Below are positions 3,526-60,981 of a stretch of DNA of 64,000 bases, in pieces. Made by a program: the position numbers and the translations under genes. Numbering within the stretch: the stretch's first letter is position 1; the number at the start of each line of letters is the position of its first letter. Where the stretch lies: positions 37,857-101,856 of the forward strand of contig JAZQJV010000018.1 of the NCBI GenBank assembly GCA_045541795.1. The letters run 5' to 3'. Under the pieces are notes generated by a model, which was not told the origin of the DNA, did not search any database, and worked only from the letters and a program-made list of their open reading frames with translations. Origin of the DNA: Patescibacteria group bacterium (GTDB lineage: Bacteria > Patescibacteriota > Microgenomatia > UBA1400 > PJMF01).

Positions 3526-3852
3526 ATGATGAGCCAGGCTCAAGCGGAGTCTTACGCGCGTGACCTGCGTGAACTTACCCAAACTGATCCTGATCTTACG
3601 GCACGCATTGACCGCCAGTATCAGCGAGCGTTGGAACTTTCTCATGAATCCGCTGGCGCTGATATGCAGACTTCATTCGCGCAGGCAAACGTTACTGAAG
3701 GCGATCCGCTAGTAGTGTACATGCAAAAGCAACTCGCCGGCGTAGACATGAATGAACAAGTGGATGCGATCCGCACTTTTTTGGATGGAGAACGTTTACG
3801 TAGCGAGCGGGATCAGTTGAATACGCAAATTGAGAATGCCGAACAAAAATAA
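3526..3852 (+). CDS. Hypothetical small acidic protein
   Basis: An intact ORF sitting between uvrA-like and the terminator/repeat cluster. No recognisable motif. Confidence 0.35.
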   Translation: MMSQAQAESYARDLRELTQTDPDLTARIDRQYQRALELSHESAGADMQTSFAQANVTEGDPLVVYMQKQLAGVDMNEQVDAIRTFLDGERLRSERDQLNTQIENAEQK

Positions 3853-3905
3853 TTGAGTATTTATTGTGTACAATAAATAAATTAATATTGATACATAAAG
3901 ATTTT

Positions 3906-3950
3906 TAAAAGTAGTTAAAAACGTTAGCAGACAAGAGGCGCGACTGCTAA
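3906..3950 (-). terminator. Hairpin gttagcag-N13-ctgctaa preceded by an A-run on the plus strand (a U-run on the minus-strand RNA). Candidate intrinsic terminator for the minus-strand gene 4102..5217, and module C of the intergenic repeat family.
   Basis: The inverted repeat is seen directly. The same conserved stem with different loops occurs at ~25521-25560 and ~60953-60980. Confidence 0.45.
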
Positions 3951-4033
3951 AAATTAGTCACTTATTTTTTAGGGAGTGTTTCGGGATTTTTGGGCTGCGC
4001 CCAAAAATCCCGAAACACAAAAACTCCCACAAC

Positions 4034-4101: not shown

Positions 4102-5217
4102 TTAATTAAGGCGCGTGATCCTGGCATAGCCGTTTCCCGTTTTGCTGCAATCGGCGGTTGCTGTCGCACTTACACAAGTATTCGACTGCGTACGGGTAGC
4201 GTCAACGGTAGAAGTCGCACAGTTGTAGCACGTCATGTGTTTGGTGATGCCGTTTGCGGAAATGAGGTTGGATGAACCAATGTAACCGGAGCCGCCAGAA
4301 CCAGACGAAAATATTGCGCCACTTCCACCATAGTATCCTGCTCCTCCACCACTATTTGTTTCGCCAGTTGAGACGTGAGAATCACCGCCACGTCCAAAGT
4401 CACCACAGGCATTATTGCCGTTAGAACATCCACCATTTGTTTGCGTACCAGGATATGACTTTCTTCCTGAATAAGTCCACCCAGAACATAAACTTGTCCC
4501 TTCTGCACCAGAGTAACCTCCTCCATTACCACCGATTCCGCAATTGGCATAATTAGTATAATTAGCACCGCCGCCAGCACCAGCAACAATTATTATTGCT
4601 GCTTGATTGGTTTTAAATGTTTGCAGCAAGCCAGTACTTGTTGTGATACTGGTGGCACCGCCGCCGCCAGCTACTGAAGTTGTACTTTCGTACATATAGA
4701 CATGATATCCAAAACCACCACCATTATACCCTCCGTTTGTGTAACCCGTAGCGCTGTAAAGCGACTGACCTTTGCCACCAACATTGATAAATAATGAAGT
4801 ATCTAGTGATGACATAATACTGCCAACTGCATAACCGCCATAACCTCCGGCTCGACTAGTAGCATCTCCTCCCTGCGCTCCCCACACCTCCAACTTGTAA
4901 CTCCTCCCGGCACACGCCGTAAATGTCTGCTCACCGCCGGTATAGTCAAAATTCTTACTTCCGCCCACACTCAGCCCGTCATCACAAGTACTGGCCGGCT
5001 CTGTCGCCATCCATCGTCCGCCGCCAATCGCCACAAACTTACTCCCACCAATCCTGATCGTGCTGCCGGCGGCAATATCACGCACCTTCATCGTGGTAAT
5101 GCTAGCGCTCGCCGCCCACACTTTACCGTTTCGTGCGGGCAATTCATCGCTCCATCGTGCCGCTAGTGCCAGTATCATTGTCGCCGCCAAAATCCCCCGC
5201 CACGCTGCATACCGCAT
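4102..5217 (-). CDS. Secreted glycine-rich repeat protein of unknown function (about 372 aa from Met at 5217). It has an N-terminal signal/TM segment and long G/S/T/N/Y-rich tracts.
   Basis: The translation begins MRYAAWRGILAATMILALAARW, which is signal-like. GGxGG / GGYGGY / AGAGGG tracts run throughout. Cysteines cluster near the C-terminus. Confidence 0.6.
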   Translation of the reverse strand: MRYAAWRGILAATMILALAARWSDELPARNGKVWAASASITTMKVRDIAAGSTIRIGGSKFVAIGGGRWMATEPASTCDDGLSVGGSKNFDYTGGEQTFTACAGRSYKLEVWGAQGGDATSRAGGYGGYAVGSIMSSLDTSLFINVGGKGQSLYSATGYTNGGYNGGGFGYHVYMYESTTSVAGGGGATSITTSTGLLQTFKTNQAAIIIVAGAGGGANYTNYANCGIGGNGGGYSGAEGTSLCSGWTYSGRKSYPGTQTNGGCSNGNNACGDFGRGGDSHVSTGETNSGGGAGYYGGSGAIFSSGSGGSGYIGSSNLISANGITKHMTCYNCATSTVDATRTQSNTCVSATATADCSKTGNGYARITRLN

Positions 5218-5545
5218 GCCGTTCCTTTCGTCTATTTCATTTCCAGGCGGGACACTTCTTCGTCCAGAAAAATGCACACGAGCGCTTCCCATCCACAGTC
5301 AGCACAGCAGCGATCTTGGTGAGACTCATAGCTTTCGCTCGAACGTCTACTCCAGAAGCTCCTTACTCATGTGCATTTTTCTCCGTTCGAACTCCACTAA
5401 CAATTTCTTGCTTTGAAACGTTTGGAGTTACTCAACTATCACAAATTCGTCTTTTCCTTTCATCTCACTACTTGCTACTGTGGATGTATTTATTTGTATT
5501 TTAACTTGTCACCGCTTATTTGTCAATAGTCAGTTTTGACGGGTT

Positions 5546-5589: not shown

Positions 5590-7011
5590 ATGAAGATCAG
5601 GGACATCAGCGTGAGCGGCCACCCGTTTTTTGGGGAGCTCACTTTTGATGCCCTCCTCCCAGACGGCACACCGGCCAGCACCATCGTCATCGCCGGCGAA
5701 AATGGTACCGGCAAGACTAAGTTTCTCGAGCTGCTTTATGATTTTTCTCGTCTCCAGCCTACAGCAACAGGCTCTGGTTACTGTCAGCTGACATTTGATT
5801 TTGACGTGGAGCAGCTGCAAGCACTTCAAGCTGAGCCAACGCTTTCATCCATCCTCACCGAGGCTACCAATACTTGGCGCATTAAAGTCGATCACTCACT
5901 ACCGGCCACTCAAGGCATTACTATTTTTTGCCAAGATGAAAGCGGCTGGAAACAGTTGGATGCGGCTCTACTCTTGGCTGATCCAGTATTCCGCGCCAGC
6001 GTCAAGGCGCTTTATTCTACTGTGGAAATAAATTACATTCCCACCGCCAGTACTTTCATCACTAATAATAGTATGGAGGATACCGCGCGCGAGAGTATCC
6101 GCTCTGGTCAAGATCTTGCCACCAAAATCCAGCAACTCCTGATTGACATGCAAAGTCGTGACGCCAATGATCTCAACGACTGGACACTAGCGCATCCAGG
6201 ACAAGTGCCGCCCGCATCCGTGCAAGGCCAGCGCATCAAACAGTTCCAAAATGCCTTTAGTGTCATGTTTGGTGACGAACTCAATTACTACGGGGTGAAG
6301 TCTGCTGGTGAGCGCAAACAGGTTTTATTCCGTAAACGTGGCCAACTGGTAGATCTGGCTGATCTTAGTTCTGGCGAAAAGCAAATTGTTTTCCGCGGGG
6401 CATTTTTACTGCAAAACCGCTCCAGCATGTGCGGTAATACTATCCTGATCGATGAACCAGAACTCAGCCTCCATCCGCTCTGGCGCACTGGGATTTTACA
6501 TTACTACCAATCACTATTTAGTGATGGTACCACTATCCGCGGTCAGCTGTTTGTCACTACTCACTCGCCACGGGTGGTAGAAAGCTGCTTCCATCAGCCC
6601 CAAAGTCTTTTGTGGATTTTGCGCCAGGAAAATGGCAAAATCAGCGTCCACAAAATCGGCACCACTCGTGCTCTGCCTAGCGTCACGATTGCCGAGACCA
6701 ATTACTTAGCTTTTGGCTTGGCGAGCATTGACTATCACGTGGGGCTGTACAGTTATCTGCAATCCCTGCTTCACAGTCCCAGCATTATCAAACTTGACCA
6801 CTTCATCCGTCATCACGCCGCTTTTAATCCCAGCCGCCACGAGCTTACTGATCAGTTTGCTGACGCCACTTATTTTACCCTACCTACCTATATCCGCAAT
6901 GCTATCAATCATCCTGAGTCCGGCCGTGAATTTACGCCCACTCAGCTGCGTGTCTCTATCGATTTGCTCCGTCAGATTTGTCAGTCAGAAAATAATAAAT
7001 GTAAAGGTTAG
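5590..7011 (+). CDS. ABC/AAA_21-type ATPase (SMC/OLD-like ATPase fold) with an uncharacterised ~120-aa C-terminal domain
   Basis: Walker A GENGTGKT, signature-like LSSGEKQ, Walker B ILIDEPELSLHP and an H-loop TTHSP are present. No Toprim or nuclease motif is recognisable in the C-terminal region. The stop at 7009-7011 lies 1 nt before the ispH ATG. Confidence 0.6.
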   Translation: MKIRDISVSGHPFFGELTFDALLPDGTPASTIVIAGENGTGKTKFLELLYDFSRLQPTATGSGYCQLTFDFDVEQLQALQAEPTLSSILTEATNTWRIKVDHSLPATQGITIFCQDESGWKQLDAALLLADPVFRASVKALYSTVEINYIPTASTFITNNSMEDTARESIRSGQDLATKIQQLLIDMQSRDANDLNDWTLAHPGQVPPASVQGQRIKQFQNAFSVMFGDELNYYGVKSAGERKQVLFRKRGQLVDLADLSSGEKQIVFRGAFLLQNRSSMCGNTILIDEPELSLHPLWRTGILHYYQSLFSDGTTIRGQLFVTTHSPRVVESCFHQPQSLLWILRQENGKISVHKIGTTRALPSVTIAETNYLAFGLASIDYHVGLYSYLQSLLHSPSIIKLDHFIRHHAAFNPSRHELTDQFADATYFTLPTYIRNAINHPESGREFTPTQLRVSIDLLRQICQSENNKCKG

Positions 7012-7012
7012 C

Positions 7013-7882
7013 ATGCAAGTTTTTTTAGCCAAGGTAAGCGGTTTTTGTGGTGACGGTGGCAAGTTTGGCGTCAGCGGTGCTATCCGTTTGGCCCAGGAAG
7101 CGGCTTTGGGCAATCCGGGGCAAGTTTACATCGTCGGCGATCTCGTCCACAATACTCATGTTACCGATTGGCTCGAGCAGTCTTACGGTATTCATTTCGT
7201 CAAAAATTTAGACGCAGTCCCGGATAAAGCCACCATCGTCATCAAAGCTCACGGCGCACCGCCAGATTTTTGTGATACTTGCATCAGCAAAAATCTTCAC
7301 ATCGTGGATGCCACCTGTCCGATGGTCAAGGCCGCCCAAAAAATGCTCAAAAAATACGTGGACGAAGGCAAGCAGGTCATTTACGTCGCCTCTAAACCTG
7401 ATCATGACGAAGCGGTGAGTGTAAGTCGCCAAGTGGATCACGGCGTCCAAGTGGTGACGCTGCCGGAGCTAGAAAATCTCACCATCAAAAATCCTCTCGC
7501 GACCGTCGTCATGACTCAGACCACTTTATCGATTTTAGAAACAAAGCGCCAGTTTGCCGCCTTGCAAAAAAAGTATCCCGACCTCACTATCCAGCCACAT
7601 TTATGTCGGGCGACGACTGACCGGCAGCAAGCAGTTTTGGAATTGGCCGCTAGTGTTGATGTGCTCATCGTCGTCGGTGCGCCGCACTCAAGTAATTCGC
7701 GCCGCCTGCTTGAAGTGGCCAGTACTAGTGGTAAACCAGCTTACAGTGTCGATGAAGCCGCCGACTTAGACGAGCACTGGTTTGATGCCAGCATTAGTAA
7801 AGTCGGCGTCATTGCCGGCGCCAGCACTCCGGCATGGATCACGACTAGCGTAGTAGAAAAAATTAAAAAAATCAAAAATTAA
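7013..7882 (+). CDS. ispH: 4-hydroxy-3-methylbut-2-enyl diphosphate reductase (IspH/LytB)
   Basis: The translation from the in-frame ATG at 7013 (MQVFLAKVSGFCGDGG..HNTHV..ATCPMV..GASTPAWI) matches the LytB family. The longer ORF-track call 6713..7882 overlaps the preceding gene and is rejected. Confidence 0.8.
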   Translation: MQVFLAKVSGFCGDGGKFGVSGAIRLAQEAALGNPGQVYIVGDLVHNTHVTDWLEQSYGIHFVKNLDAVPDKATIVIKAHGAPPDFCDTCISKNLHIVDATCPMVKAAQKMLKKYVDEGKQVIYVASKPDHDEAVSVSRQVDHGVQVVTLPELENLTIKNPLATVVMTQTTLSILETKRQFAALQKKYPDLTIQPHLCRATTDRQQAVLELAASVDVLIVVGAPHSSNSRRLLEVASTSGKPAYSVDEAADLDEHWFDASISKVGVIAGASTPAWITTSVVEKIKKIKN

Positions 7883-7911
7883 AAAAATTGAGTATTTTTT
7901 GTGTACAATAA

Positions 7912-8418
7912 ATGACTATGAAAAAACTCCCGCAATTCCTCACTGGCATCGGTCAAGATTCACACCGCTTGCGTGCGGCCAAAAAAGGTGAAGTTCTCAC
8001 TCTCGCCGGCGTCCCTTTCGACTGTGGTCTCACGCTACAAGCTAACTCTGATGGTGACGTCATCCTGCATGCTTTATTTAATGCTGTGTCTACCGCCTTG
8101 GGTGGCGGTTCTATCAGTACTGTCGCTGATAAAATGTGCGCCGCCGACATCACTGACTCTCGCGCCTACTTGCAGGTCATCTTAGAAAAAATGTCTGCCC
8201 GCGGCTACATGCTCGTCAATATCAGTATCAGCATCGAAGCCGGTCAGCCGCGTTTGGAAAAATATTTCGTGTACATGAAAAAGTCACTCGCAGATTTGTG
8301 TGGGCTCGATACTGATCAGGTCGGCTTGAGTGCCACTAGTGGCGAAGGACTCACTCGTGTGAGTGATGGCGACGGTATTAGCGTGATCGCCAACGTCCTT
8401 TTGGAACGGACCACATGA
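7912..8418 (+). CDS. ispF: 2-C-methyl-D-erythritol 2,4-cyclodiphosphate synthase (IspF)
   Basis: GIGQDSHRL..SDGDVILHAL..ISIEAGQPRL motifs are present. The stop overlaps the ispE start (ATGA). The alternative start is Met at 7918. Confidence 0.8.
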   Translation: MTMKKLPQFLTGIGQDSHRLRAAKKGEVLTLAGVPFDCGLTLQANSDGDVILHALFNAVSTALGGGSISTVADKMCAADITDSRAYLQVILEKMSARGYMLVNISISIEAGQPRLEKYFVYMKKSLADLCGLDTDQVGLSATSGEGLTRVSDGDGISVIANVLLERTT

Positions 8419-9293
8419 ATAAATTTAGCGTCTGCGCACCCGCCAAAATCAATCTCTCGCTGCATATCGGCGAACGTTTGCCGGGCGGCTATCACGAGGT
8501 CGAGACGATCATGTGCAAACTGCCGCTCGCTGACGTCATGACGGTGGAACTGTTGCCGTCACAAGAGTCGGATGAAGTAATCTGTGATCAAGCTCTAGTC
8601 CCCACCGGTGAGGCCAATCTTATCAATAAAGCTTTGCGCTTGCTGCGCGCCCAGGTGTCCTTACCCGCTTGCCGCATCCATTTGCAAAAAAATATTCCCG
8701 TCGCCGCGGGCCTAGCTGGCGGCAGTAGTGATGCTGGCAGCTTACTGGTGGCGCTCAATGATGAGTGCGGTCTCGGTCTTACTCCTGATCGGCTCACAAG
8801 CCTCGCACTCCAGCTGGGGGCGGATGTACCTTTTTTTACCAGAAACGACAACGTCACTCGCGAAATCCATCACGGTCTGCCCACCTTACAAAGCCAGTCA
8901 CTACCTGATTTGCTGCCCTGCCGGATCATCACTATTTACCAAGCCACCGGCCTGGATACCGCCGCTATGTATGCCGCCTGGGACAGCGAAATTATTTTCG
9001 TCACTGACCGCAGCCATACCATCTCTGCGCTTGACGCTCTCCAAGCCCACTCACTGCCAGGCATTGCCGCGGCTCTCCACAATGACTTCTACCAGTTGGC
9101 GGTCTCCCGTGCACCAGCAATTGCCAGCGCCCGAGAATCTCTAGTGCGTACTGGCGCGCTTGGCGTGAATCTTACCGGCAAAGGGCCGACAATTTTTGGC
9201 CTTTTCCCGCCGGGCGCAGCCATTGATGAAAAATTATTACGAGGTTTTAGTTATCAAGTTTTTGATTTAGAAAGTGCTTATGATCCAACGTAA
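8415..9293 (+). CDS. ispE: 4-diphosphocytidyl-2-C-methyl-D-erythritol kinase (IspE)
   Basis: APAKINLSLHI..GYHEVETIM..PVAAGLAGGSSDAGS is a GHMP-kinase glycine-rich loop. Confidence 0.8.
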   Translation: MNKFSVCAPAKINLSLHIGERLPGGYHEVETIMCKLPLADVMTVELLPSQESDEVICDQALVPTGEANLINKALRLLRAQVSLPACRIHLQKNIPVAAGLAGGSSDAGSLLVALNDECGLGLTPDRLTSLALQLGADVPFFTRNDNVTREIHHGLPTLQSQSLPDLLPCRIITIYQATGLDTAAMYAAWDSEIIFVTDRSHTISALDALQAHSLPGIAAALHNDFYQLAVSRAPAIASARESLVRTGALGVNLTGKGPTIFGLFPPGAAIDEKLLRGFSYQVFDLESAYDPT

Positions 9294-10341
9294 AGATACC
9301 AGATCCGTCCACGTGGGCAATGTCCAAATCGGTGGCGGTGCTCCGGTGAGCATCCAGACCATGGTCAAGGTAGACTCTCACGATCCAGAGGCGTGCATCC
9401 GCCAAATCCTCGATTTTGAAGCCGCTGGTGCCCAGATCGTGCGTATCGGTTTCCTCGATATGGACAGTGTCCGGCAGGTGAGCACGATCAAGCGTCATGT
9501 CCACGTACCCTTAGTGGCCGATATTCATTTTGAGGCTGAACTAGCACTCGAAGCACTGCGCCAAGGCATAGATAAGTTGCGCATCAATCCCGGCAACATC
9601 GGCGGCAAAGACAAGACGGAAGCCGTCGTCAAGGCGGCCGCCCAAAAAGGTGTGCCTATCCGTATCGGTGTCAATGCTGGCAGTCTGCAAAAAGACATCC
9701 TCGCGCGCTACGGCCACCCCACGCCAGAAGCTTTAGTGGAATCCGCCGCCGCTCACATCAAAATCTTGGAAGATCTCGACTTTCACGATATTGTCGTGTC
9801 TCTCAAAATGAGCGACGTCCCCAAAATGGTCAGCGCCTATCGTCTTTTTAGTGAACGTTTTGACTACCCGCTGCATCTAGGTGTCACGGAAGCTGGCCCG
9901 GGTCGCAGTTCCACTGTCAAATCCAGCATGGGTATCGGCAGTCTGTTGCTAGACGGCATTGGTGATACCCTGCGCGTTTCTATGACTGGTGACGGCCGTG
10001 AAGAAGTACTCGTCGGCCGCGAGATCCTCAAACATCTTGGACTGCGGCAAGAACCGATCTTAATTTCTTGTCCTACCTGCTCGCGCACTCAGTGGGACTT
10101 GCTTGAGGTCGCATACAAAGTCGAGCACTACCTTGCCCAAAAAAAAGAACCAATCAAAGTGGCGGTGATGGGTTGCGCCGTCAACGGCCCTGGTGAAGCT
10201 CGGGAAGCAGACATCGGTATTGCCGGTGGTAAGGGCATGGGGATCATTTTTGAGCACGGTCAAGTGGTGGCCACGCTGCCGCAAGAAAAACTGTATGACG
10301 CACTGGTGGCGAGAATTGAAAAAATGACCCAAACTACTTAA
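9274..10341 (+). CDS. ispG: 4-hydroxy-3-methylbut-2-en-1-yl diphosphate synthase (IspG/GcpE)
   Basis: IQRKDTRSVHVGNVQIGGGAPVSIQTM..RINPGNIG..SCPTCSRT..MGCAVNGPGE matches the GcpE family. It overlaps ispE by 20 nt. Confidence 0.8.
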   Translation: MLMIQRKDTRSVHVGNVQIGGGAPVSIQTMVKVDSHDPEACIRQILDFEAAGAQIVRIGFLDMDSVRQVSTIKRHVHVPLVADIHFEAELALEALRQGIDKLRINPGNIGGKDKTEAVVKAAAQKGVPIRIGVNAGSLQKDILARYGHPTPEALVESAAAHIKILEDLDFHDIVVSLKMSDVPKMVSAYRLFSERFDYPLHLGVTEAGPGRSSTVKSSMGIGSLLLDGIGDTLRVSMTGDGREEVLVGREILKHLGLRQEPILISCPTCSRTQWDLLEVAYKVEHYLAQKKEPIKVAVMGCAVNGPGEAREADIGIAGGKGMGIIFEHGQVVATLPQEKLYDALVARIEKMTQTT

Positions 10342-10356
10342 TCGCTACAGCCGTGT

Positions 10357-10453
10357 CAGTTATTCGGTAATAAAAATCAGTATTACGGTTGGAAAATTCA
10401 GTTATTCGGTAAAACGAGAAATTTAAATCGAGTATTTATTGTATACGATAAAT
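10357..10453 (+). repeat. Left copy of a ~100-bp inverted-repeat pair (modules A+B: a ttattcggtaa-rich segment plus the degenerate palindrome ATTTATTGTATACGATAAAT)
   Basis: It is about 90% identical to the reverse complement of 14711-14810 over ~100 bp. Confidence 0.7.
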
Positions 10454-10550
10454 TGTTTTTATTCCGGTATATCAATGTATTCATATACCTCACTTTTTAA
10501 GTAAATTGTACACAATTTGTCTACGCTATCTTCTACCGGAAGACTGAAAT

Positions 10551-14627: not shown

Positions 14628-14710
14628 TCAGCGCCAAAATTAACTTTTTTCACCTCAAAAAATCAGTGCCAAAATTATACCGGTGTACCAATTAAATTTC
14701 AAAAATCAAA

Positions 14711-14836
14711 ATTCATTTATTGTACACAAAAAATACTCAATTTAATTTTTCATTTTTACCGAATAACTGAATTTCCCAACCGTAATACTGATTTTTCTTA
14801 CCGAATATGTCATAAAAATTACCGAATAACTCAATT
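14711..14836 (-). repeat. Right copy of the inverted-repeat pair (palindrome B plus the ttaccgaataa-rich module A, in reverse complement), extended by an extra partial A unit
   Basis: Its reverse complement aligns with 10357-10453 at about 90% identity. Confidence 0.7.
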
Positions 14837-25420: not shown

Positions 25421-25520
25421 ACATTCCTTTCACTAATTTATCGCTTTATGCTTATCTATATTGTAACGCAAAAATTCGTACTTTTGACAGCAATTTTGCT
25501 GCAATTTTGATTTCCTAAAT

Positions 25521-25650
25521 TATTAGCACTCTATCATTTAGACTGCTAACGTTTTTAACTACTTTAAAATTTACCTATGTATCAATATAAATTCATTTAT
25601 TGTACACAATAAATACTCAATTTTCTTTTTCATTTTTACCGTATAACTGG
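25521..25650 (-). repeat. Full-length copy (reverse orientation) of the modular intergenic repeat, with the hairpin module C, the palindrome module B and the ttaccgtataa module A. It overlaps the stop codon of the A2M-like gene.
   Basis: The reverse complement of 25521-25622 is about 85% identical to 3853-3950. Positions 25611-25650 match 14730-14770. Confidence 0.7.
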
Positions 25651-28600
25651 TTGGGTCTCGCCGCCGCTGACTTCATCACCATCTGCCGCCACTTTTTGCG
25701 CCGTCTCTACCACTTCTTCTTGTCTCGTCATCACTTCTGGCGTAATGACGGGAGGTGGGGTCGGCGGTCGGCGGTTTTTGCGGATGATCGTGACTATGCC
25801 GGCTATGATTGCTACAGTTGCTAAAGCGAGTAAGATCCACGCATTAGTGCTGCCCTCGGGCTTGCTGATTAGTGTTTCTTGCTCGTCAGCGTAAGTCTCA
25901 TCAGCCTTGCTGATCCATGCCGGCTGCTTATCTAAGATTTGGATTTTATCCGTCATGGCTGTCTGCGCTACAAAGTCAGCATCATACATCGAACCGACAC
26001 GGGTCGGCGGTGCGCTTACTGTTTGTGCCAAATTTGTTAATACCGCTTGGTAAGAGACAATCGTCATTCCTCGTTTGACTTCATACAAAGTACCATTAAA
26101 GCCAGTGAAATTAAACGTCCGATTGGCCCAGACATTGTTTTCCCGCAAAAGTGGGCGCAAATTGCTGGGCAGATAATCATCAATATTGACGAAATATTGT
26201 GTCTGGCCTTTATTCTCAATCCCCAAGTATACCGTCACGATGTCGCCGGCTTTGATGTCCTCGCCAGTTTTTTCGGCGCGCACGTAGGCCTTGTAAATAT
26301 TGAGCTTCTTGTTTTCCCGCGGGGAATTGGTGCTGGTACGCCACTGATCGACACTGACGGTCACGTATATGGGTGCATCAGCGCCGTCATCTGTACGGCG
26401 TACGGTAATGGTATTGACGTCACCTGGTAAGTCAGCTAAGTTGACCGTAAAATGCTTTTCCCGGTCTATGCCAGAATTAAAATCAGCCATACCGATGGTC
26501 TGCTCGCCAGCCAAAATCACATAACTGCCGCCAACATCTTGGGGCGCAGCATACTCATACCATGCCATCAATGCCTCAATTGCTGTCGCGCTTTCGTAAG
26601 TGTTGGCCCAGCCAGCCTCGCGCCGATACCCCAAAAGCTGTGTCACGAGTTTTTCCAACTGTTGTTGATAGCCGCCATATTCTTGGTGATAAGCCAATAC
26701 TGCCTGTATCGTCAGTGCTAGATCTGCCGGTACGCTCCGGTAACGTTGGGCCTCACTACTGGTCAGATCGATGTTGTCATTTTCCATCGCTCGCAGTAAA
26801 CGGGTGACATTATGACTGGCTGCTTCTCGGTCGCCAGCTAAAAGATTAGCTTGCACCATCCACGAAAGCAAATCAACGTCAGTGGTGGCGGCGGCATTCA
26901 TCTGATCGTAATACTGTAAAGCGGCATCAAAGCTGGAAACTGATTTTCCTTCCATGGTCACTGTCTGACTGCGCTCACCCAGCAAAAGCAAACCGTACAC
27001 ACTGGAAATTAAATCAGCACTATTCAAACGTTCGCCAGCCGCTAAGTATTTACCCTGTAAAGTGTCAGCCAAAAACTGTGCGGCTCGAGCTTGCACCGGA
27101 GTTTGGGCTTGCGGCAAATGCTTCACCACGTATGTCGTCCGGAAAGCGCTAGCATCACCGCGAGTTTTATTCCAAAAACCCCAGCCGCCGCTGCTTTGCT
27201 GCAAAGAAGTCAGATTTTTCACGCCCGTCTCAATTAATTGATCAAGATCCACGCCGTCAAAATCTTCACTACTAAAGTAGTCACTATCGTGCGCTGCCAG
27301 GGCCGGCACTAATCTGGAGGTCACTTGCTCCACACAACCGCGCGGATACTCCAGCAAATCCTTCATCGCACTGCGCAGTGATGAGAGTAAATCCGCCGCT
27401 ACGCTGATGCTTACGCTCGAGCGCTCTCGCTCACTGTCGGGAGCAACTCCCAGATCAAATTCGCCCGCATGCAGTGAAAACTGACTCGTTTTCTGACTGT
27501 AGCCAAAAGGAAGAATCTGTAAGGTTTTAACCAGCACATCACCACTGCCTCCACTGCTGACATTACGCACGCCCGTAGTGATTTTGGTCGCTGGCATTTC
27601 ACTGATTGCTTTTACCGGTACGGTGACGTTTTTGGTTTCGCCAGCTGTGAGCGTAAGGCTGGAGGGGAAAGTTTCCAGAGTCTGCAAACCTTCTCCCGCT
27701 TCCCAGACAGGTACAAAGCTTTGCGTGACACCAGTATAATTCGTCACACTAAAACCCAAATGTAAAATGTCGCCCACGCGCATTCTTTCGGGCGCAATTA
27801 CCCGGGAGACTACGTCTTTTTGCGTGACTACTTCCTGTTTGCTTTCGCCTACTACTGTTTCCGGCGTCACGGCCACGCCCGTGAGTGCCCAGGTAGTCAA
27901 GTTATCCGGCATCACAAATTCCGTGCTGGCTTCACCATTGCTGTCGGTAATGATTTTTGGATTCCAGTAAGCGGTATCTTTGAAAACATCGCGCAGTTCA
28001 CTACCATCGCCACCACCGCCCTCGGCGCCAAAAAGCATAATGGATTGTAGTGAGTGGTAAGTACGGATCCAGTGATGACGCTCACTCCAGTAACGGCTAA
28101 AAATATCGCCCCGGTGTGAAGCCGCCAGCTCAAGCAAGGCTTTGTCAATCGTCCACAAAGTGACGCTGGCGCTTAGTGGTTTGCCTGTGTAGGCATTGGT
28201 AGTTTTTATTTTTACTTTTACGCTGTCACCAGGATTGTAAATTTCTTTGTCTGTAGTAATTTCTACGTTAATCTTTTTCAGGTCTCGAGCCATGTCCACG
28301 CCGCTCGTGCTGGAGATGTAATTATTACGGTCAAAAAGTGATACGTCATGGAAAGTGTTTGGCTGATCGGTATCTACTGCCTCGTAAGCGACTTGATCAG
28401 GGCTTTGGTGGAAAGTGCCGATAGAGTAACGATCTAGCCGCTGTCGGCCAAAGTCAGCAAAATACTGCCGACCGACTAAATTCTTGCCTACTTCGTAGCT
28501 GACATTGATTTTTTCACTCGGCACGTGCTTTTTGTCTTTGTCAATCACGATTTTGAGGGCAGAATCAGGGTCACTGCTGACGCCATTGCTACTTCCATCC

Positions 28601-30402
28601 AAGCCATAATCACTCCCACTATTGTCGTCACAATAAAACCAATCATAAGCAGCTTGAAAGTGTCCGTTCTCATCATAAACTTTGTAAATCACGCTACGAT
28701 TATCACAAGTACTGGGGCGATAACCAAAACTAAAATTCCCGTCAGCATCAGTACGGCTTTCGAGTGTAGTCAATTCCAAAAACTGCTCATAATGATCTGG
28801 GTCGCGCAAAATAATGGTGGCCGTCATCCGTCTGTTGGCAGCACTGACTTCATCACGGATACTGTTGATCTTTCCCGTCATTTCCATGCCGCTGCCCACT
28901 TGGAAGCTTTTGTTGGTGTCGCTTGTTTTAATTTCAAAAGGCGTGTAATTTATTTTTACCACTTTGAAGTCTTCGGCAGGCTCACTCAGGCCGTCACTAT
29001 AGCGGACAAATAAGGTGTAATAAAGCTGCGTTGTTCCTGACTCTTCACGTTTGTCCTCTTGCTTAGGCAGTCCAGTTTTAATTTCCCAGTCGAGCTCACC
29101 ATTTTCGCCCAGTGTCAGCGCGTGCCACTGGCAATCTTCGTTGTCATCATTGCCGCCCCAGGTATATCCTTGTTTGAAACAATAACTCACGCTTGAGCCA
29201 TTCATATCATGACCGGCAAAACTTGTCCCGCGCACGTGGGCGCTCACATTTTCTCCGGTCACTAGTGTATCTTCGTCTACATCCAAAATCAACTCATATT
29301 CCGGTTTGACGTACTCTCTCACTTCAAACCAAGTACTATTGCTGTACCGGTGCTCGCCACCCACAGACAAATAATAATCCGTCAGATCTGCATTCTCTCC
29401 GATCTTCCAGCTGCCATCAATGCCGCCGTATTCATCCGGGGTGTAAGTTTGTGCCCAATCAGTCACTTCACCATTTTTGCCAGAGTGAGTAATTTTCACG
29501 CTCACAGGTTCACGAGGCACACTGTAACGCGCGTCATCTTCTCGGCGCAGGAAAGCTTTAAAATATACCGTATCGCCGCGCTGGTAAAGCGGTTTATCGG
29601 TAAAAACATAATTATTTGCATCAGCGTGGTAAATCGAGTAGCTACCACCCGCAGTCCATAAACTACCAAGTTCCACGTCCTGGATCGCTAAAGGGATAAA
29701 ATCCCAACCGTTTGCCGTCACCACTACTAAAGCATCAGCATTTTCGGAGTAAGGGACAGTTGCGATCCCGTTGCTCGGGAAAGAAATTTCGTCGAGCGCG
29801 TGTACGCCGTCTTGTAAATTATACACGAACACTTGTCCGCTGATATTACCCGAGCCGCTAGCCAAATCCTGCGACCATAATGTAAGGTTTTCGTCACCAT
29901 TTTTGGCCATGGTAGCAAAACTTGAGCGCGTCACTAAAGCAAATTGCTCCTGGTCAGCGTCTACTGCCCGTATCCACCAAGCACCCGTGGCGGCTGGTAC
30001 GTCTAATTCATAATTACGGCCAGCCAACTGGTCCAAAGTCACACTGGTCACAGGCAATGCCAAGTCAAAATCAAAGTTTGACCACTGCAACTGACGGCGT
30101 TTGAAATAACTTTGCACTTCCTCATCTGGACTACTATATATCAAAGCATCAAGCAAGCCGTCCAAATCCAAAGGATAAAGACTGATCACTGCTTTAGGAT
30201 CGCTAAAATCTTGCGGATTTAGCTTGATTTTGTCATCAAGTCCCAGTGGTACAAATACAGAACGTGCCCCATAGTCTTCGGTAAAATTAAAACGTATCCG
30301 GCGCTGTTGCTGGTAAGCGGCACCAATTTCCTTGCCCTCGCCAAAAAACAATAAACTCAAACTCACCAGTATAGTCAACAAAAAACGTCCACACCATTTC
30401 AT
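25636..30402 (-). CDS. Alpha-2-macroglobulin family protein (bacterial A2M/ECAM-like, thioester-containing), 1,589 aa from Met at 30402, with an N-terminal signal peptide and a C-terminal TM anchor plus a Pro-rich cytoplasmic tail
   Basis: LEYPRGCVEQVTSRLVPALA matches the bacterial A2M thioester region (compare the E. coli YPYGCLEQTTS motif). DTAYWNPKIITDSNGEASTEFVMPDNLTTWALTGVAV matches the A2M domain. The start is chosen at MKWCGRFLLTILVSLSLLFF (signal peptide), downstream of the ORF-track Met at 30771. The C-terminus AWILLALATVAIIAGIVTII-RKNRRPPTPPP is a TM followed by a basic stop-transfer. Confidence 0.8.
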   Translation of the reverse strand: MKWCGRFLLTILVSLSLLFFGEGKEIGAAYQQQRRIRFNFTEDYGARSVFVPLGLDDKIKLNPQDFSDPKAVISLYPLDLDGLLDALIYSSPDEEVQSYFKRRQLQWSNFDFDLALPVTSVTLDQLAGRNYELDVPAATGAWWIRAVDADQEQFALVTRSSFATMAKNGDENLTLWSQDLASGSGNISGQVFVYNLQDGVHALDEISFPSNGIATVPYSENADALVVVTANGWDFIPLAIQDVELGSLWTAGGSYSIYHADANNYVFTDKPLYQRGDTVYFKAFLRREDDARYSVPREPVSVKITHSGKNGEVTDWAQTYTPDEYGGIDGSWKIGENADLTDYYLSVGGEHRYSNSTWFEVREYVKPEYELILDVDEDTLVTGENVSAHVRGTSFAGHDMNGSSVSYCFKQGYTWGGNDDNEDCQWHALTLGENGELDWEIKTGLPKQEDKREESGTTQLYYTLFVRYSDGLSEPAEDFKVVKINYTPFEIKTSDTNKSFQVGSGMEMTGKINSIRDEVSAANRRMTATIILRDPDHYEQFLELTTLESRTDADGNFSFGYRPSTCDNRSVIYKVYDENGHFQAAYDWFYCDDNSGSDYGLDGSSNGVSSDPDSALKIVIDKDKKHVPSEKINVSYEVGKNLVGRQYFADFGRQRLDRYSIGTFHQSPDQVAYEAVDTDQPNTFHDVSLFDRNNYISSTSGVDMARDLKKINVEITTDKEIYNPGDSVKVKIKTTNAYTGKPLSASVTLWTIDKALLELAASHRGDIFSRYWSERHHWIRTYHSLQSIMLFGAEGGGGDGSELRDVFKDTAYWNPKIITDSNGEASTEFVMPDNLTTWALTGVAVTPETVVGESKQEVVTQKDVVSRVIAPERMRVGDILHLGFSVTNYTGVTQSFVPVWEAGEGLQTLETFPSSLTLTAGETKNVTVPVKAISEMPATKITTGVRNVSSGGSGDVLVKTLQILPFGYSQKTSQFSLHAGEFDLGVAPDSERERSSVSISVAADLLSSLRSAMKDLLEYPRGCVEQVTSRLVPALAAHDSDYFSSEDFDGVDLDQLIETGVKNLTSLQQSSGGWGFWNKTRGDASAFRTTYVVKHLPQAQTPVQARAAQFLADTLQGKYLAAGERLNSADLISSVYGLLLLGERSQTVTMEGKSVSSFDAALQYYDQMNAAATTDVDLLSWMVQANLLAGDREAASHNVTRLLRAMENDNIDLTSSEAQRYRSVPADLALTIQAVLAYHQEYGGYQQQLEKLVTQLLGYRREAGWANTYESATAIEALMAWYEYAAPQDVGGSYVILAGEQTIGMADFNSGIDREKHFTVNLADLPGDVNTITVRRTDDGADAPIYVTVSVDQWRTSTNSPRENKKLNIYKAYVRAEKTGEDIKAGDIVTVYLGIENKGQTQYFVNIDDYLPSNLRPLLRENNVWANRTFNFTGFNGTLYEVKRGMTIVSYQAVLTNLAQTVSAPPTRVGSMYDADFVAQTAMTDKIQILDKQPAWISKADETYADEQETLISKPEGSTNAWILLALATVAIIAGIVTIIRKNRRPPTPPPVITPEVMTRQEEVVETAQKVAADGDEVSGGETQPVIR

Positions 30403-30466
30403 ATCTACTATCATAACACGCACCCTCATACTTGTCAAATCTGTGCACATGTAGTAAAATGAATTT

Positions 30467-31150
30467 ATGCCATTTGCAAGCACCAAACAATCAGCTGCGC
30501 CAGACCCTAATTCATCGGCCGACATCGCCGAAAATAGTGTCACTTGGGAAGAAGATGTGAACGTCGATCCTGACGAAGTTATTTTGGCGGCGATCATGGA
30601 AAACCTCGAGTCGGATATATGCGCTCGCTTGCAGGAGGATTTTGGCGACGAACTAGCGGCCACTTTTGAACAGGCACTTGCTGGCAACGGACAATTTGTA
30701 CGCATGTTGCTGCAGTCAGGCGTCCCGGTGGTGACGATGTTTGAGTGTCTGCGCGGGCGCCAGACGGCCATTAAAGATCAAGCGACTCTTGATGCTCTTT
30801 TGGATCACGGCTTGAGTTTGGAGCTTTTGCTGGGTGAGGCAGTGCCGTTTTATTTGCTAGTCTCTAGTGCCAATCGTGATGAGAGACTTTTTGACGCCTT
30901 GCTTGCCCACAAAAACATTAATCTGGACGATTTACTCCTGGCCAAAGCCGATCCGACCAAACTTGCCCGTCATCTTGATCGCTTTTCGCCAGTCAACGTG
31001 AGACTGCTACTACAATACGGCATCCCGCTACCCACGCTGGAAGCATACATTGATCAGTGTGACGCTGTCAATGAGCAACGCGGCTATGCGCCGCACTATT
31101 TCCGCCGGCGGGTGCAGGATATTTTGGATAGCGCGCACACAGGCGTGTGA
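30467..31150 (+). CDS. Hypothetical cytoplasmic protein with degenerate ankyrin-like LLxxGxxL repeats
   Basis: LLQSGVPV / LLDHGLSL / LLAHKNINL / LLLQYGIPL periodicity is visible. It is leaderless behind a TAAAAT -10. Confidence 0.35.
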   Translation: MPFASTKQSAAPDPNSSADIAENSVTWEEDVNVDPDEVILAAIMENLESDICARLQEDFGDELAATFEQALAGNGQFVRMLLQSGVPVVTMFECLRGRQTAIKDQATLDALLDHGLSLELLLGEAVPFYLLVSSANRDERLFDALLAHKNINLDDLLLAKADPTKLARHLDRFSPVNVRLLLQYGIPLPTLEAYIDQCDAVNEQRGYAPHYFRRRVQDILDSAHTGV

Positions 31151-31225: not shown

Positions 31226-31406
31226 TGCATCCAAATAGTAATTGATAGGGAAGCGGGCTATTTGTCGTCATTCTTACTTTATACCCGATCACTAATTAGC
31301 GTCTGCATGTCCCGCCCGCCGTAGATGATCATTGCTATATCATTTTCCCGCCTTCTTGTCAAAACTTTTACTGTTTTCACTCATATCATCAAATTCCCAT
31401 GCATAG

Positions 31407-31435
31407 CGCTCATTTTTGTGGTATAATAAGAATAT
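31407..31435 (+). promoter_or_regulatory. Extended -10 promoter TTTGTGGTATAAT with the ATG 8 nt downstream (leaderless)
   Basis: catttttgtggtataataagaatatATG is read directly. The same motif recurs at 18237, 32663, 34118, 35222, 38676 and 47700. Confidence 0.55.
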
Positions 31436-32563
31436 ATGCGAAAACTTCGTGTTTTTAGCCAGGCTGTGTGTGTGTGTGTGGCTCTCGCCACTCTTTGTGC
31501 TAAGTCGGTAAGTGCAAATTATTGCTTGTGTCAGTATCCCGCCAGCGGGACACCGACAGAACTAGACTGCAAAGATGTAGGAAGCACGACCTCATGTAGT
31601 GATCAGTGTAGCTATTGGTCAGTTTACACATGGGGAACACATAGCGGACCATATAATACTTCAACCGAATGTGCAGCAAAGAAGCTTGAAGCTCAAAGGA
31701 AAACTGGTGCTGATACGGGCAATCAAACATGCCTGATTGTGGTTCAAGACAACACTACTAAGGGAGTTAGACATACGTGTGAAAAACTAGGCGGCGCCAG
31801 TTCTTGCAATGATGTAGCAGCGGCGGCAACACTTAATAGCAACGAAAGTATTAGGCAGAAGACGCTGTTTGATGATCCCTCAGCCTGTGAAAATGCATTT
31901 AGTACTCTTACAACACAAGTAGCCTGCAAGAAAACTAAAAACAGCGAGTGTATAGATATTACCGTCTACACTGATAGTTGGGATACAATAGGGTATTTTG
32001 CTTGTTTTAATGGCGAAAACCGTATGTCGTATTGTCAGGGTCCACAGTGCTGTATCTATCAAAACGATAGTGGACGCCAAACATGTCAATGCGGTACTGA
32101 TAATCTTACTGACAGCGGAAGTTGCAAGAGCACCCACGGTAGTGCTGGTTCATTGGTAAGTGGTCCGTATCACCGTACCGCTTGCGCAGATAAGCTAGAC
32201 TCCGAGCCCCTCACCGTCGACCTCCTCCCCAAATACGAAAAACTCTCCCAGACCTCACTTGACGAAATCAACCCTCTTACCCAAAGCAAAGTCCTCAGCG
32301 AAGCCAACACTCGTACTCCCGGCGCTCTCGTCTCTCGCCTTGTCCGCAATATTGTCTTCCCGATTGCTGGCTTACTTCTCTTTCTCATGATTACCTGGTC
32401 TGGCTTTCAAATCGTCCAAGGCGGAATGATGGGTGATGATAATGCTGTCAGCTCAGGTAAAGGACGTCTTACCGCCACTATTGTCGGCTTCCTACTGCTT
32501 TTTGGCAGTTACTGGCTCTGGTCGCTGGTAGAAGCGGCGCTGGGACTGGGGACAACGAGCTAG
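31436..32563 (+). CDS. Secreted cysteine-rich protein (about 28 Cys) with a conserved C-terminal two-TM hairpin anchor (VirB2/TrbC-type pilin-like), paralog A
   Basis: Signal peptide MRKLRVFSQAVCVCVALATLCAKSVSA. A Cys-rich ectodomain ends with the QCGTDNLTDSGSC motif shared with paralog B. The C-terminal 123 aa are identical to paralog B: TM1 IVFPIAGLLLFLMITWSGFQIV, loop QGGMMGDDNAVSSGKGR, TM2 LTATIVGFLLLFGSYWLWSLV. Confidence 0.75.
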   Translation: MRKLRVFSQAVCVCVALATLCAKSVSANYCLCQYPASGTPTELDCKDVGSTTSCSDQCSYWSVYTWGTHSGPYNTSTECAAKKLEAQRKTGADTGNQTCLIVVQDNTTKGVRHTCEKLGGASSCNDVAAAATLNSNESIRQKTLFDDPSACENAFSTLTTQVACKKTKNSECIDITVYTDSWDTIGYFACFNGENRMSYCQGPQCCIYQNDSGRQTCQCGTDNLTDSGSCKSTHGSAGSLVSGPYHRTACADKLDSEPLTVDLLPKYEKLSQTSLDEINPLTQSKVLSEANTRTPGALVSRLVRNIVFPIAGLLLFLMITWSGFQIVQGGMMGDDNAVSSGKGRLTATIVGFLLLFGSYWLWSLVEAALGLGTTS

Positions 32564-32684
32564 ACAAACCCAGAAATTGATAAATTAAGAAATAGAAAGG
32601 TAGAAAAAATATAAATAAAGTGGAGGTGAGAGCGTGTTTTAATTTCCCCTATTTACGGGAAGATTTTGTGGTATAATAAAAGGT

Positions 32685-34097
32685 ATGACGAAGAAAATTG
32701 GCTTCATTGTTATACTTGCAGCAACAAACATAATATTAGTTACTAATGCGGTTTTTGCGGACGAGAGTTGGTGCTTATTTGTTCCTACGCCAGGAACTGA
32801 TTCTGCTGGTAAGACGTATGCGGGAAGGTTTGATTGTTCACCACCAGATGTTTCCGGCGCCTGTAATCCAGCACTCGCAGGATATGGTAGCTGGGAAGCC
32901 GCTGGTTCGGGATACAAAAGCTTTGATGAATGTGCGAATGCTTATGACAATCTAAGCGGTTACTGCTATACAAGTGGTAGTGACGAATGTGCTAGTGCTA
33001 AGCGCAACACTTGCAGTTCCTTTTTTTATAAAGACGCAAATACGTGTGGGAATGAACATCTAGATTTCAACGCTTACTGCTATGACCCGGCTACAAACAA
33101 ATGCAATAAAATAAGTGGAGGGGTATCCAAAAGCTCTACTAGCAGTAAATGTGTCGGCGAATACACATATAAGGGGGGCACGGCAGAGTCTAATAAGAAA
33201 TCTTGCGAGGACTATGCTGCAACAATGGACGAACAGAAAAAAGCGGGTGATAAATTTTGTCTCTGGTACACTCATGGAGAGAATAATAATGAAAAGGCGG
33301 GAGATACGGATTTTAGGTCATTCAGATGTGAACCGATACTAATTGAGACCGAAACAACATGTGATGATCGTTTCCCACCAACTAATAGTGAAAAATGGAT
33401 ACTCTATCGCAAACAACCATATTCTACTCAAGAAGAATGTAAAAACGCTCTGTACCAAGAAAAAGTCTGGTGTTTCCATCCAAACGACGGCCGCTGCCAT
33501 AATGAAACATACGTCCAGTGTAGGGAACAAAACGGACAACAGTATAAGGATAAGACAACGTGTGAAGATAAACACCAAAAATGCTGTAAATATGAAGATA
33601 AGAATGGACACTCAACTTGCCAGTGTGGCTCTGATAATTTGGACGCAAAGGGGCAATGCTTAGCTTCATCTGATAAATACGGTTCTTTAAAGGGTAGCTA
33701 TGACGGTAGAACTGCTTGTTCTGATTCACTCGACTCTGAACCTCTCACCGTCGACCTCCTCCCCAAATACGAAAAACTCTCCCAAACCTCACTTGACGAA
33801 ATCAACCCTCTTACCCAAAGCAAAGTCCTCAGCGAAGCCAACACTCGCACTCCCGGCGCTCTCGTCTCTCGCCTTGTCCGCAATATTGTCTTCCCGATTG
33901 CCGGTCTTTTACTCTTTCTCATGATTACCTGGTCTGGCTTTCAAATCGTCCAAGGCGGAATGATGGGTGATGATAATGCTGTCAGCTCAGGTAAAGGACG
34001 TCTTACCGCCACCATCGTCGGCTTCCTACTGCTTTTTGGCAGTTACTGGCTCTGGTCGCTGGTAGAAGCGGCACTAGGACTGGGGACGACGAGCTAA
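32685..34097 (+). CDS. Secreted cysteine-rich protein (about 40 Cys) with the same C-terminal two-TM hairpin anchor, paralog B
   Basis: An N-terminal signal/TM (IGFIVILAATNIILVTNAVFA) is followed by a divergent Cys-rich ectodomain and the shared QCGSDNLDAKGQC motif. The last ~123 aa are identical to paralog A. The nt identity is about 97% over 33719-34097 vs 32191-32563, and all differences are synonymous. Confidence 0.75.
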   Translation: MTKKIGFIVILAATNIILVTNAVFADESWCLFVPTPGTDSAGKTYAGRFDCSPPDVSGACNPALAGYGSWEAAGSGYKSFDECANAYDNLSGYCYTSGSDECASAKRNTCSSFFYKDANTCGNEHLDFNAYCYDPATNKCNKISGGVSKSSTSSKCVGEYTYKGGTAESNKKSCEDYAATMDEQKKAGDKFCLWYTHGENNNEKAGDTDFRSFRCEPILIETETTCDDRFPPTNSEKWILYRKQPYSTQEECKNALYQEKVWCFHPNDGRCHNETYVQCREQNGQQYKDKTTCEDKHQKCCKYEDKNGHSTCQCGSDNLDAKGQCLASSDKYGSLKGSYDGRTACSDSLDSEPLTVDLLPKYEKLSQTSLDEINPLTQSKVLSEANTRTPGALVSRLVRNIVFPIAGLLLFLMITWSGFQIVQGGMMGDDNAVSSGKGRLTATIVGFLLLFGSYWLWSLVEAALGLGTTS

Positions 34098-47678: not shown

Positions 47679-47732
47679 TTGCTAGCGCTAAAATGACTAG
47701 TTTGTGGTATAATAGGGAAAAAGGAGCCGGAT

Positions 47733-60905: not shown

Positions 60906-60981
60906 ATCGAAAAAATACCTATACACAGGTAAAATTACAAGTCAATAAAAACGTTAGCAGAGTAGGAGTGAGACTGCTAAT
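60883..60981 (+). repeat. Copy of the modular intergenic repeat (palindrome module B overlapping the NUDIX stop codon, plus hairpin module C acting as a minus-strand terminator for 60982..62226)
   Basis: ttgagtatttattgtgtacaataaat .. aaaaacgttagcag-N13-ctgctaa has the same architecture and stem as 3853-3950. Confidence 0.7.

Follow-up and report, generated by a model that had tools for sequence, protein, structure and literature searches.

The gene and its coding constraint

The 64-kb stretch of DNA analyzed here (the window) carries on its minus strand a gene for a homolog of alpha-2-macroglobulin (A2M) with a CVEQ thioester motif. The complete coding sequence, established from the open reading frame (ORF) list, its translation, an allele and the pattern of substitution, occupies positions 25636..30402 and specifies 1588 amino acids plus a stop codon; residue numbers below refer to this protein, which starts at ATG 30402 with MKWCGRF.... 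Unless stated otherwise, the features of the protein are given as minus-strand coordinates of the window.

The original prediction had allowed a size of 1,589-1,711 residues, the upper value being that of the longest minus-strand ORF (25636..30771, 1711 residues). However, the first 123 codons of this ORF are antisense to a separate plus-strand gene at 30467-31150. An allele with 98% identity (P0001, from a metagenome, JGI sample 3300011008), which neighbors the same divergent 227-residue gene as the window A2M, was called independently as a protein of 1588 residues with the start MKWCGRF. In addition, the best promoter-like site in the region (TTGACA-17-TATGAT with TG, 30410..30438, minus strand, 11 of 12 matches to a sigma-70-like consensus) has its 3′ end 7 nucleotides from ATG 30402, a leaderless-type layout recognized here as a consensus match only. 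Given the gene call for the allele, the promoter-like site and the antisense extension, the gene is assigned to 25636-30402. The signal peptide and the gene calls for homologs also fit this start, and of the two sizes the shorter reading stands, whereas the 1711-residue reading is rejected as an antisense artifact. The term "giant" applied earlier was an overstatement, since the A2Ms of E. coli and Salmonella, as constructs in the PDB, run to ∼1600-1650 residues.

Between the window gene and P0001 there are 111 nucleotide and 29 amino acid differences, corresponding to a ratio of nonsynonymous to synonymous substitution rates (dN/dS) of 0.10. None of these differences falls in the predicted bait loop or in the thioester motif. 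The A2M gene is intact and under purifying selection.

Domain organization and predicted fold

Four Pfam families matched the protein above their curated cut-offs: MG2 (residues 265-361, 3.4e-16), A2M (PF00207, residues 810-893, 6.4e-15), A2M_BRD (residues 670-759, 4e-7) and, barely over its cut-off, TED_complement (residues 1000-1104, 5.8e-5). A sequence search of the PDB gave E. coli ECAM/YfhM as the best match (3.7e-16), followed by the Salmonella A2M (SaA2M), mosquito TEP1 and human A2M. The fold was modeled with AlphaFold in two overlapping pieces, with homolog alignments as input. The C-terminal piece (residues 390-1516) was predicted with a mean local confidence (pLDDT) of 82.9 and a template-modeling score (pTM) of 0.68, and the N-terminal piece (residues 24-800, model mdad87368a177), which is all-beta, with values of 83.4 and 0.75, respectively.

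Foldseek comparison of the C-terminal piece placed native ECAM (5a42, E 2.6e-51) and SaA2M (4u48, 3.5e-50) first, at a sequence identity of ∼15%, with A2ML1, A2M, CD109, C3-C5 and TEP1 at lower ranks. The N-terminal piece matched the beta chains of complement C3, C4 and C5 (E 1e-25; target-normalized TM-score ∼0.58, root mean square deviation ∼8 Å), and also ECAM and SaA2M.

The order of elements in the models is that of an A2M: about six beta-sandwiches up to residue ∼760, a disordered loop, MG7, a split CUB domain, a helical thioester domain (TED) and a C-terminal beta-sandwich. The first part comprises ∼6 macroglobulin (MG)-type beta-sandwich domains (residues ∼34-760, 28123..30303), as indicated by Pfam, AlphaFold and Foldseek, and includes the MG2 and A2M_BRD matches. 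The A2M domain proper, or MG7 (residues 810-893, 27724..27975), was recognized through PF00207 and holds the WNPK...PDNLTTW block. The predicted TED (residues ∼1005-1284, 26551..27390) is all-alpha, with ∼12 helices in the model and agreement between Pfam and Foldseek, and the CVEQ motif (residues 1023-1026) opens one of its helices (residues 1024-1039). The C-terminal MG domain (CTMG/MG8, residues ∼1346-1480, 25963..26367), a beta-sandwich in the model, carries Met1472-Tyr1473. By predicted fold and domain content the protein is a member of the A2M / thioester-containing protein superfamily. The original prediction had named profile and structure comparisons as the checks on this assignment; the Pfam results and the Foldseek and model results bear it out, with A2M- and MG-type matches obtained and CVEQ lying within a TED-like fold.

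Membrane topology and anchor

A hydropathy scan with a 19-residue window revealed only two hydrophobic segments, at residues 3-21 and 1522-1540. The first forms the core of a predicted signal peptide (residues 1-23, MKWCGRFLLTILVSLSLLFFGEG, 30334..30402), the N terminus being divided into n, h and c parts like a Sec signal peptide (MKWCGR / FLLTILVSLSLLFF / GEG). Cleavage after GEG23, judged by eye, is probable, and homologs have matching n-, h- and c-regions with clearer cleavage sites (for example, ...LRLAQA|DY in P0002). The signal peptide has no lipobox. A lipoprotein anchored through Cys4 was considered and rejected, because Cys4 precedes the hydrophobic core and is not part of an L-x-x-C box.

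The second segment is a predicted transmembrane (TM) helix (WILLALATVAIIAGIVTII, 25783..25839; hydropathy 2.7 over 19 residues). It is followed by a 48-residue tail (RKNRRPPTPPPVITPE..., 25639..25782) that begins RKNRRPPTPPP..., passes from basic through Pro-rich to acidic, and would be cytoplasmic by the positive-inside rule. The protein is therefore best described as a putative type I membrane protein with an ectodomain of ∼1500 residues. The signal peptide, C-terminal TM helix, basic Pro-rich tail and missing N-terminal lipobox had all been noted originally, and all agree with the scan.

A sortase or exosortase sorting signal was also considered for the C-terminal helix, on the basis of a match to NCBIfam Microco_LAVTG (15 bits versus a cut-off of 27) and a sortase on the contig of a relative. 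Across 107 family members, no shared motif precedes the TM helix, and the tails, usually basic at the start, range from 3 to 120 residues. Given this lack of a motif and the variable tail lengths, the helix is taken to be a plain anchor and the sorting signal is rejected.

Thioester motif and predicted bait loop

The two sequence blocks on which the A2M assignment was originally based are present at residues 1016-1028 (LEYPRGCVEQVTS) and 813-842 (WNPKIITDSNGEASTEFVMPDNLTTWALTG, the WNPK...LTTWALTG block, with invariant columns in family alignments). Within the former, the thioester motif YPRGCVEQ (Y1019, C1023, Q1026; 27325..27348) aligns with YPYGCLEQ of ECAM, and family alignments show no change at its Y, P, G, C, E and Q. 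All 25 family members compared share the pocket residues Y1019, M1472 and Y1473, and an alignment of 38 sequences shows Y1019, C1023, E1025, Q1026 and M1472-Y1473 to be retained in the window protein.

The predicted bait loop (residues 782-803, YHSLQSIMLFGAEGGGGDGSEL, 27994..28059) is disordered in the model, where it is among a small number of stretches with pLDDT <50, and sits between the bait-region domain (BRD) and MG7, which is the bait position. It aligns with the bait segment of ECAM, ...RFGGDGDELKRG, and contains the site at which many relatives carry an inserted Hint domain, described below.

A family of C-terminally anchored A2M proteins

When 1.84 billion representatives were searched exhaustively with HMMER, residues 400-1588 serving as the query, 980 proteins were returned at E <=1e-30. 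The family counts given here refer to 127 full-length proteins among the best 150 of these 980 matches. A C-terminal TM helix was found in 104 of the 127, the pattern.P.GC.EQ was kept in 117, and a lipobox-like pattern was present in 5. The clade of the window A2M itself is small, with four representatives at 50% identity. Among genome loci, the C-terminal TM helix was confined to the closest relatives and absent from ∼70 loci from Chloroflexota, Armatimonadota, Acidobacteriota, Leptospira and others. A profile search with the family alignment against a set of 5.8 billion proteins gave no new named relatives, and no description of the C-terminally anchored family was found in the literature searched. 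As judged from these sequences, the C-terminal anchor is a hallmark of a large family and is not peculiar to the window gene.

In 8 of 11 anchored loci, a gene for a membrane-anchored Memo-like protein lies directly 3′ of the A2M gene, and the stop and start codons often overlap. These proteins match PF01875 with E values from 1e-27 to 6e-6 and share the motifs GGIxPHH, GPNHxEKG, VDFSHYL and HTNS. The genes are located at 14652-15485 in L001, 6723-7541 in L003, 14779-15555 in L006, 14328-15233 in L008, 14833-15741 in L012, 14872-15783 in L015, 14919-15809 in L018 and 14586-15512 in L031. Among the loci with such a gene is that of a 39%-identical relative from the window protein's own clade. 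No Memo-like homolog was detected in the 10-kb flanks of the non-anchored A2M loci or, by tblastn, in the 64-kb window.

Proposed function and alternatives

The window protein is proposed to be a surface-tethered snap-trap protease inhibitor, membrane-anchored and thioester-bearing, of a member of the Patescibacteria. The function is assigned by homology, and the probability of this reading is put at roughly 0.6. After export by the Sec pathway and removal of the signal peptide, the single C-terminal helix would keep the A2M tethered on the outside of the cytoplasmic membrane. Cys1023 and Gln1026 would form an internal thioester, shielded at the TED's interface with the C-terminal MG domain by Tyr1019, Met1472 and Tyr1473. 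A foreign protease, from a host bacterium or a neighbor, would cut the disordered loop at residues 782-803, the domains would rearrange, and the exposed thioester would capture the protease covalently, which would then remain on the anchored C-terminal fragment. Here, thioester formation, the monoderm envelope, protease trapping and the biological target are what we infer. A trap is consistent with the conserved pocket, with a bait loop that has its homolog in ECAM, with the strong constraint and with the predicted exposed location, and appears to be the best-supported reading. The same protective role has been suggested for the A2M-domain membrane proteins of Vampirococcus, a predator that itself belongs to the Candidate Phyla Radiation (CPR) (PMC8080830).

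Several observations weigh against a trap of this kind and are gathered in this and the following paragraphs, together with the alternatives on which they bear. The first concerns the lock on the thioester. In ECAM and SaA2M, the thioester pocket is made by the two Tyr residues of YPYGC and by the Met-Tyr pair (EXMY) of the C-terminal MG domain, and an RDDR motif forms hydrogen bonds, first with the TED of the native protein and, once the protein is activated, with the cleaved bait (PMC4498604). In the window protein, the second pocket Tyr is replaced by Arg (R1021, 27340-27342), as it is in P0001-P0003 and P0195; Arg occurs at this position in 2 of 117 family representatives. Furthermore, the window protein and P0001-P0004 have lost the hairpin that bears the RDDR motif (E.RDDR), which is degenerate in P0005 and P0006. 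These changes, the absence of about two of the N-terminal domains that ECAM has and the ability of type II A2Ms to function without a thioester (PMC5764988) speak for a structural or shielding coat component, an MG scaffold with a degenerate thioester in which CVEQ is a relic. Such a role is regarded as quite improbable. Family members that are only 24-38% identical to the window protein show no variation at the C, E and Q of CxEQ, at Y1019 or at M1472-Y1473, the retention of.P.GC.EQ in the representatives counted above and the strong purifying selection point the same way, and a relic motif is unlikely because the CxEQ and Met-Tyr residues are too conserved.

A second difficulty for the protease trap lies in the bait loop, whose conservation (mean column majority) is 0.65 as compared with a protein average of 0.45, so that it ranks with the best-conserved parts of the protein. 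This conservation seems to fit specific cleavage better than a promiscuous bait. The argument is tempered by the fact that part of the loop, GGDG.EL[KR], is common to the window protein and ECAM.

Third, at least 72 of the 127 relatives contain a Hint domain of 128-129 residues exactly within the bait loop, in the layout ...AE.GGG | CF...TxxH...VHN | QKGD..R..F.DTAYWNP. The best Pfam match of the insert is PT-HINT (6.5e-10). Cys1, a block-B TxxH and, at the end, His-Asn are present in the insert, and the residue at the +1 position is mostly Gln, Asp or Glu, in place of Cys, Ser or Thr. We take this pattern to be typical of bacterial intein-like (BIL) domains, which cleave instead of splicing. 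Examples are residues 832-960 of P0005 and the A2M ORFs (∼9.4-14.9 kb of the loci) of L003, L004, L006, L012, L015 and L018. The window protein is free of the insert, its sequence reading GAEGGGG-DGSELRDVFKDTAYWNP, and the equivalent site is at residues 796-799 (∼28006-28017). No paper combining a macroglobulin with an intein, BIL or Hint domain was found in the literature search. The presence of a Hint domain at this position suggests that activation in the family need not depend on a foreign protease.

The Hint-containing relatives bear on another possibility, that the protein is a covalent attachment device resembling C3 or TEP1. Here, the bait would be cut at contact, and the fragment comprising the TED and the TM helix would bond to nucleophiles of the host surface, fixing the epibiont. 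Because the TM anchor and the TED share this fragment, a reacted thioester would join two cells. The Hint domain would presumably cut the loop by itself, comparable with the processing that C3 and TEP1 undergo beforehand, the bait loop is conserved rather than hypervariable, and cultured members of the lineage are reported to be obligate epibionts. Nevertheless, a Hint domain is absent from the window protein, the solved structures closest to it are those of protease inhibitors, and no conserved partner or adhesion gene adjoins the A2M gene in the window; attachment is considered unlikely. The broader proposal that the anchored CPR A2Ms are covalent "grappling hooks" or contact sensors for the surface of the host bacterium, and not defensive traps, is likewise held to be doubtful. 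In such a scheme, the bait would be cut by a host-surface protease in the case of the window protein and by the built-in Hint domain in most relatives, possibly with the Memo-like protein.

The last point to set against a surface-exposed protease trap is that the type of envelope is deduced from taxonomy. Patescibacteria, or CPR bacteria, have no outer membrane, as indicated by cryo-electron microscopy and gene content, and because the CPR group lacks this membrane the ectodomain would lie at the cell surface, in or under a wall or S-layer. The source organism is most probably a member of this group. The named relatives of the window enolase are from Candidatus Pacebacteria, Woesebacteria and "Patescibacteria group" (67-71% identity). 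The nearest named A2M relatives, among the matches listed for species-representative genomes, are from WWE3, Daviesbacteria, Microgenomates and a Patescibacteria single-cell genome, the best of these listed matches having 28% identity. In addition, the 39%-identical A2M relative has a sortase on the same contig. The enolase and A2M relatives, the flanking PF18895 pilin-like genes and the sortase of the relative lend indirect support to the original premise of a monoderm cell with a reduced genome.

Were the cell a diderm, the protein could be a periplasmic trap anchored in the inner membrane, with the C-terminal helix taking the place of the ECAM lipid anchor. In the window, an AcrB/HlyD-type pair is found 3 kb from the A2M gene, and some loci with anchored relatives are labeled Gammaproteobacteria, Bdellovibrionales or Micavibrio (L007, L012, L015, L018 and L031 being the loci with doubtful labels). 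However, one enolase sequence (P0115) is filed as both "Pseudomonadales bacterium" and "Candidatus Woesebacteria", and beside the gene for the anchored A2M of the "Micavibrio" locus is one for an LCP-family wall-glycopolymer transferase, an enzyme typical of monoderms (L031 20554-22227). Given this double filing and the LCP transferase, the labels are treated with caution. With window markers that point to Patescibacteria and no outer-membrane gene among the 40 ORFs scanned, a periplasmic location is judged to be rather remote.

Genomic neighborhood and other features of the window

Downstream of the A2M gene, on the same strand, lie an intergenic repeat, a GAPDH gene, a 155-residue ORF and a GT2 glycosyltransferase gene. 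Upstream and divergent are the 227-residue ORF, which has no family assignment, two paralogs with a PF18895 "T4SS pilin" C terminus and an AAA ATPase. No conserved operon partner was found for the window A2M gene. No transglycosylase or transpeptidase domain was detected in the 40 window ORFs scanned with Pfam (∼9 nonoverlapping ORFs of at least 150 residues, none of them adjacent to the A2M gene, were outside the scan), in agreement with the earlier statement that no pbpC is adjacent.

The A2M stop codon (TAA, 25636-25638) is embedded in a copy of a dispersed intergenic repeat, as had been observed from the sequence. The A2M reading frame ends inside this copy (25518..25649, no strand assigned), which supplies its last 3-4 codons and the stop. 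Two matches were recorded for the copy, D3 (25584-25649), which is 91% identical to 14704-14769, and I1 (111 nucleotides), which is 83% identical to 3845-3955. Copies in the window are found at 3845-3955, 7881-7915, 10361-10460, 14704-14807, 25518-25649 and 60867-60981. The repeat extends to ∼110 nucleotides, occurs in both orientations, and has a near-palindromic core (TTATTGTGTACAATAA) and a hairpin-like module, TTAGCAG...CTGCTAA. One copy adjoins the gene for a 396-residue protein (4102-5292, minus strand) with a strong match to the ALK/LTK glycine-rich domain (PF12810, 3.9e-34).

Strong −10 elements (TGGTATAAT or TATGAT) were noted in the sites at 30410-30438 (minus strand), 30432-30460 (plus strand), 31405-31429, 32655-32679 and 47691-47715. 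The gap between the −10 element and the ATG is ∼6-7 nucleotides in the first four genes and ∼18 nucleotides for 47691-47715 (ATG 47733). This spacing suggests that leaderless mRNAs may be common in the source genome.

The tandem PF18895 paralogs (31436-32563 and 32685-34097) share 300 nucleotides at 94% identity (32177-32476 and 33711-34010). A near-identical metagenome contig (L002) lacks the 375-residue PF18895 copy, and a duplication or deletion of this copy would therefore be recent. Elsewhere in the window, contiguous genes of the methylerythritol phosphate (MEP) pathway (6713-10341, plus strand) encode LytB/IspH, YgbB/IspF, a GHMP kinase that is likely IspE, and GcpE/IspG. Given the presence of these genes, isoprenoid precursor synthesis is kept in the putatively reduced genome.

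Significance and comparison with known systems

Reviews describe bacterial A2Ms as Gram-negative, periplasmic, lipid-anchored proteins linked to PBP1c (PMC12939704, PMC3735191). The window gene encodes a thioester A2M that is anchored in another way, and its lineage is thought to be without an outer membrane. The nearest representatives of the anchored family to which it belongs fall into at least 100 clusters at 50% identity. A2M-domain membrane proteins in CPR bacteria had been mentioned in passing before (PMC8080830); what is new is that, in a candidate-phyla bacterium, an A2M of the thioester kind has a C-terminal TM helix as its anchor, fewer domains and changes in its lock.

For CPR biology, these findings nominate an abundant, very large and chemically reactive surface protein as a player at the interface between epibiont and host. 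A deep bacterial family with eukaryote-like core domains also bears on the proposed transfer of A2M from animals to bacteria. If the Hint domains in the bait loops of the relatives are self-cleaving, they would represent a new route for the activation or processing of a thioester protein, and if the "grappling-hook" proposal were true, tagging chemistry of the complement and TEP type would serve attachment of one bacterium to another. The family with a Hint domain in the bait and a Memo-like partner is a more novel lead than the window gene itself.

Among eukaryotic proteins, the N-terminal 777 residues superpose best on the beta chains (MG1-6) of complement C3, C4 and C5. The ∼10 domains of the window protein correspond to the "core" set of the eukaryotic thioester proteins (C3/C4/C5, TEP1, A2M, A2ML1 and CD109), but ANA, C345C and receptor-binding extras are missing, identity is ∼13-15% and the host is a bacterium. 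CD109 likewise has a C-terminal membrane tether, which is a glycosylphosphatidylinositol (GPI) anchor, whereas that of the window protein is a TM helix.

The Hint-containing A2Ms of Patescibacteria (for example, P0005, P0006, L003, L004, L006 and L008) resemble the window protein over the full length at 25-30% identity. They share with it the signal peptide, C-terminal TM helix and basic tail, the YP.GCVEQ and MY motifs, and the flanks of the insertion point (AE.GGG |.GD.R..F.DTAYWNP). The window gene differs in having neither the Hint insert nor a downstream Memo-like gene. Within the CPR, Vampirococcus lugosii (Absconditabacteria) has A2M-domain membrane proteins of 1895 and 2368 residues that were proposed to guard against host proteases (PMC8080830). 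These too are large A2M-domain membrane proteins of a CPR bacterium, likened here by description alone, but they are much longer.

Two other classes of protein were considered and rejected. Type II bacterial A2Ms such as MagD/YfaS act without a thioester (PMC5764988), whereas CVEQ is present in the window protein, and the neighbors of its gene (GAPDH, GT2, pilin-like and AAA ATPase genes) are not those of the six-gene mag/yfa operon. A Gram-positive pilin-type thioester adhesin (Cpa/SfbI) does not fit a protein whose Pfam matches (E <=0.1) are all to A2M families, with a helical TED of the A2M type and no LPXTG motif.

The closest known systems are the class 1, or type I, bacterial A2Ms, which are characterized by a thioester (CLEQ), a bait region, a lipobox-bearing signal peptide and adjacency to pbpC (PMC3735191, PMC5764988). 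ECAM-type proteins have thirteen domains, two of which, MG0 and NIE, are extra ones at the N terminus (PMC12939704). Both the best sequence matches and the best structure matches of the window protein are to this type (ECAM/YfhM and SaA2M), with which it shares CXEQ and a bait region. Common to all three are the MG ring, the bait-region domain, MG7, CUB, a TED with CxEQ and the C-terminal MG domain. The first pocket Tyr and the Met-Tyr pair are kept, the GGDG.EL[KR] part of the bait is alignable, and each is a monomer-sized, membrane-tethered protein. Unlike ECAM and SaA2M, however, the window protein has a C-terminal TM anchor in place of an N-terminal lipobox, no pbpC among the scanned window ORFs, a CPR host instead of a Gram-negative one and an identity of ∼15%. 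It further differs from ECAM in the deleted RDDR hairpin, in the Arg at the second pocket Tyr, and in having ∼6 MG domains before the bait as opposed to eight, a count that comes from secondary-structure segmentation of the model and carries moderate confidence. Given that ∼6 and not eight MG domains precede the bait, equivalents of MG0 and NIE would be missing. In summary, the protein is not a classical type I A2M, as judged from its sequence and model, although it most probably works like one.

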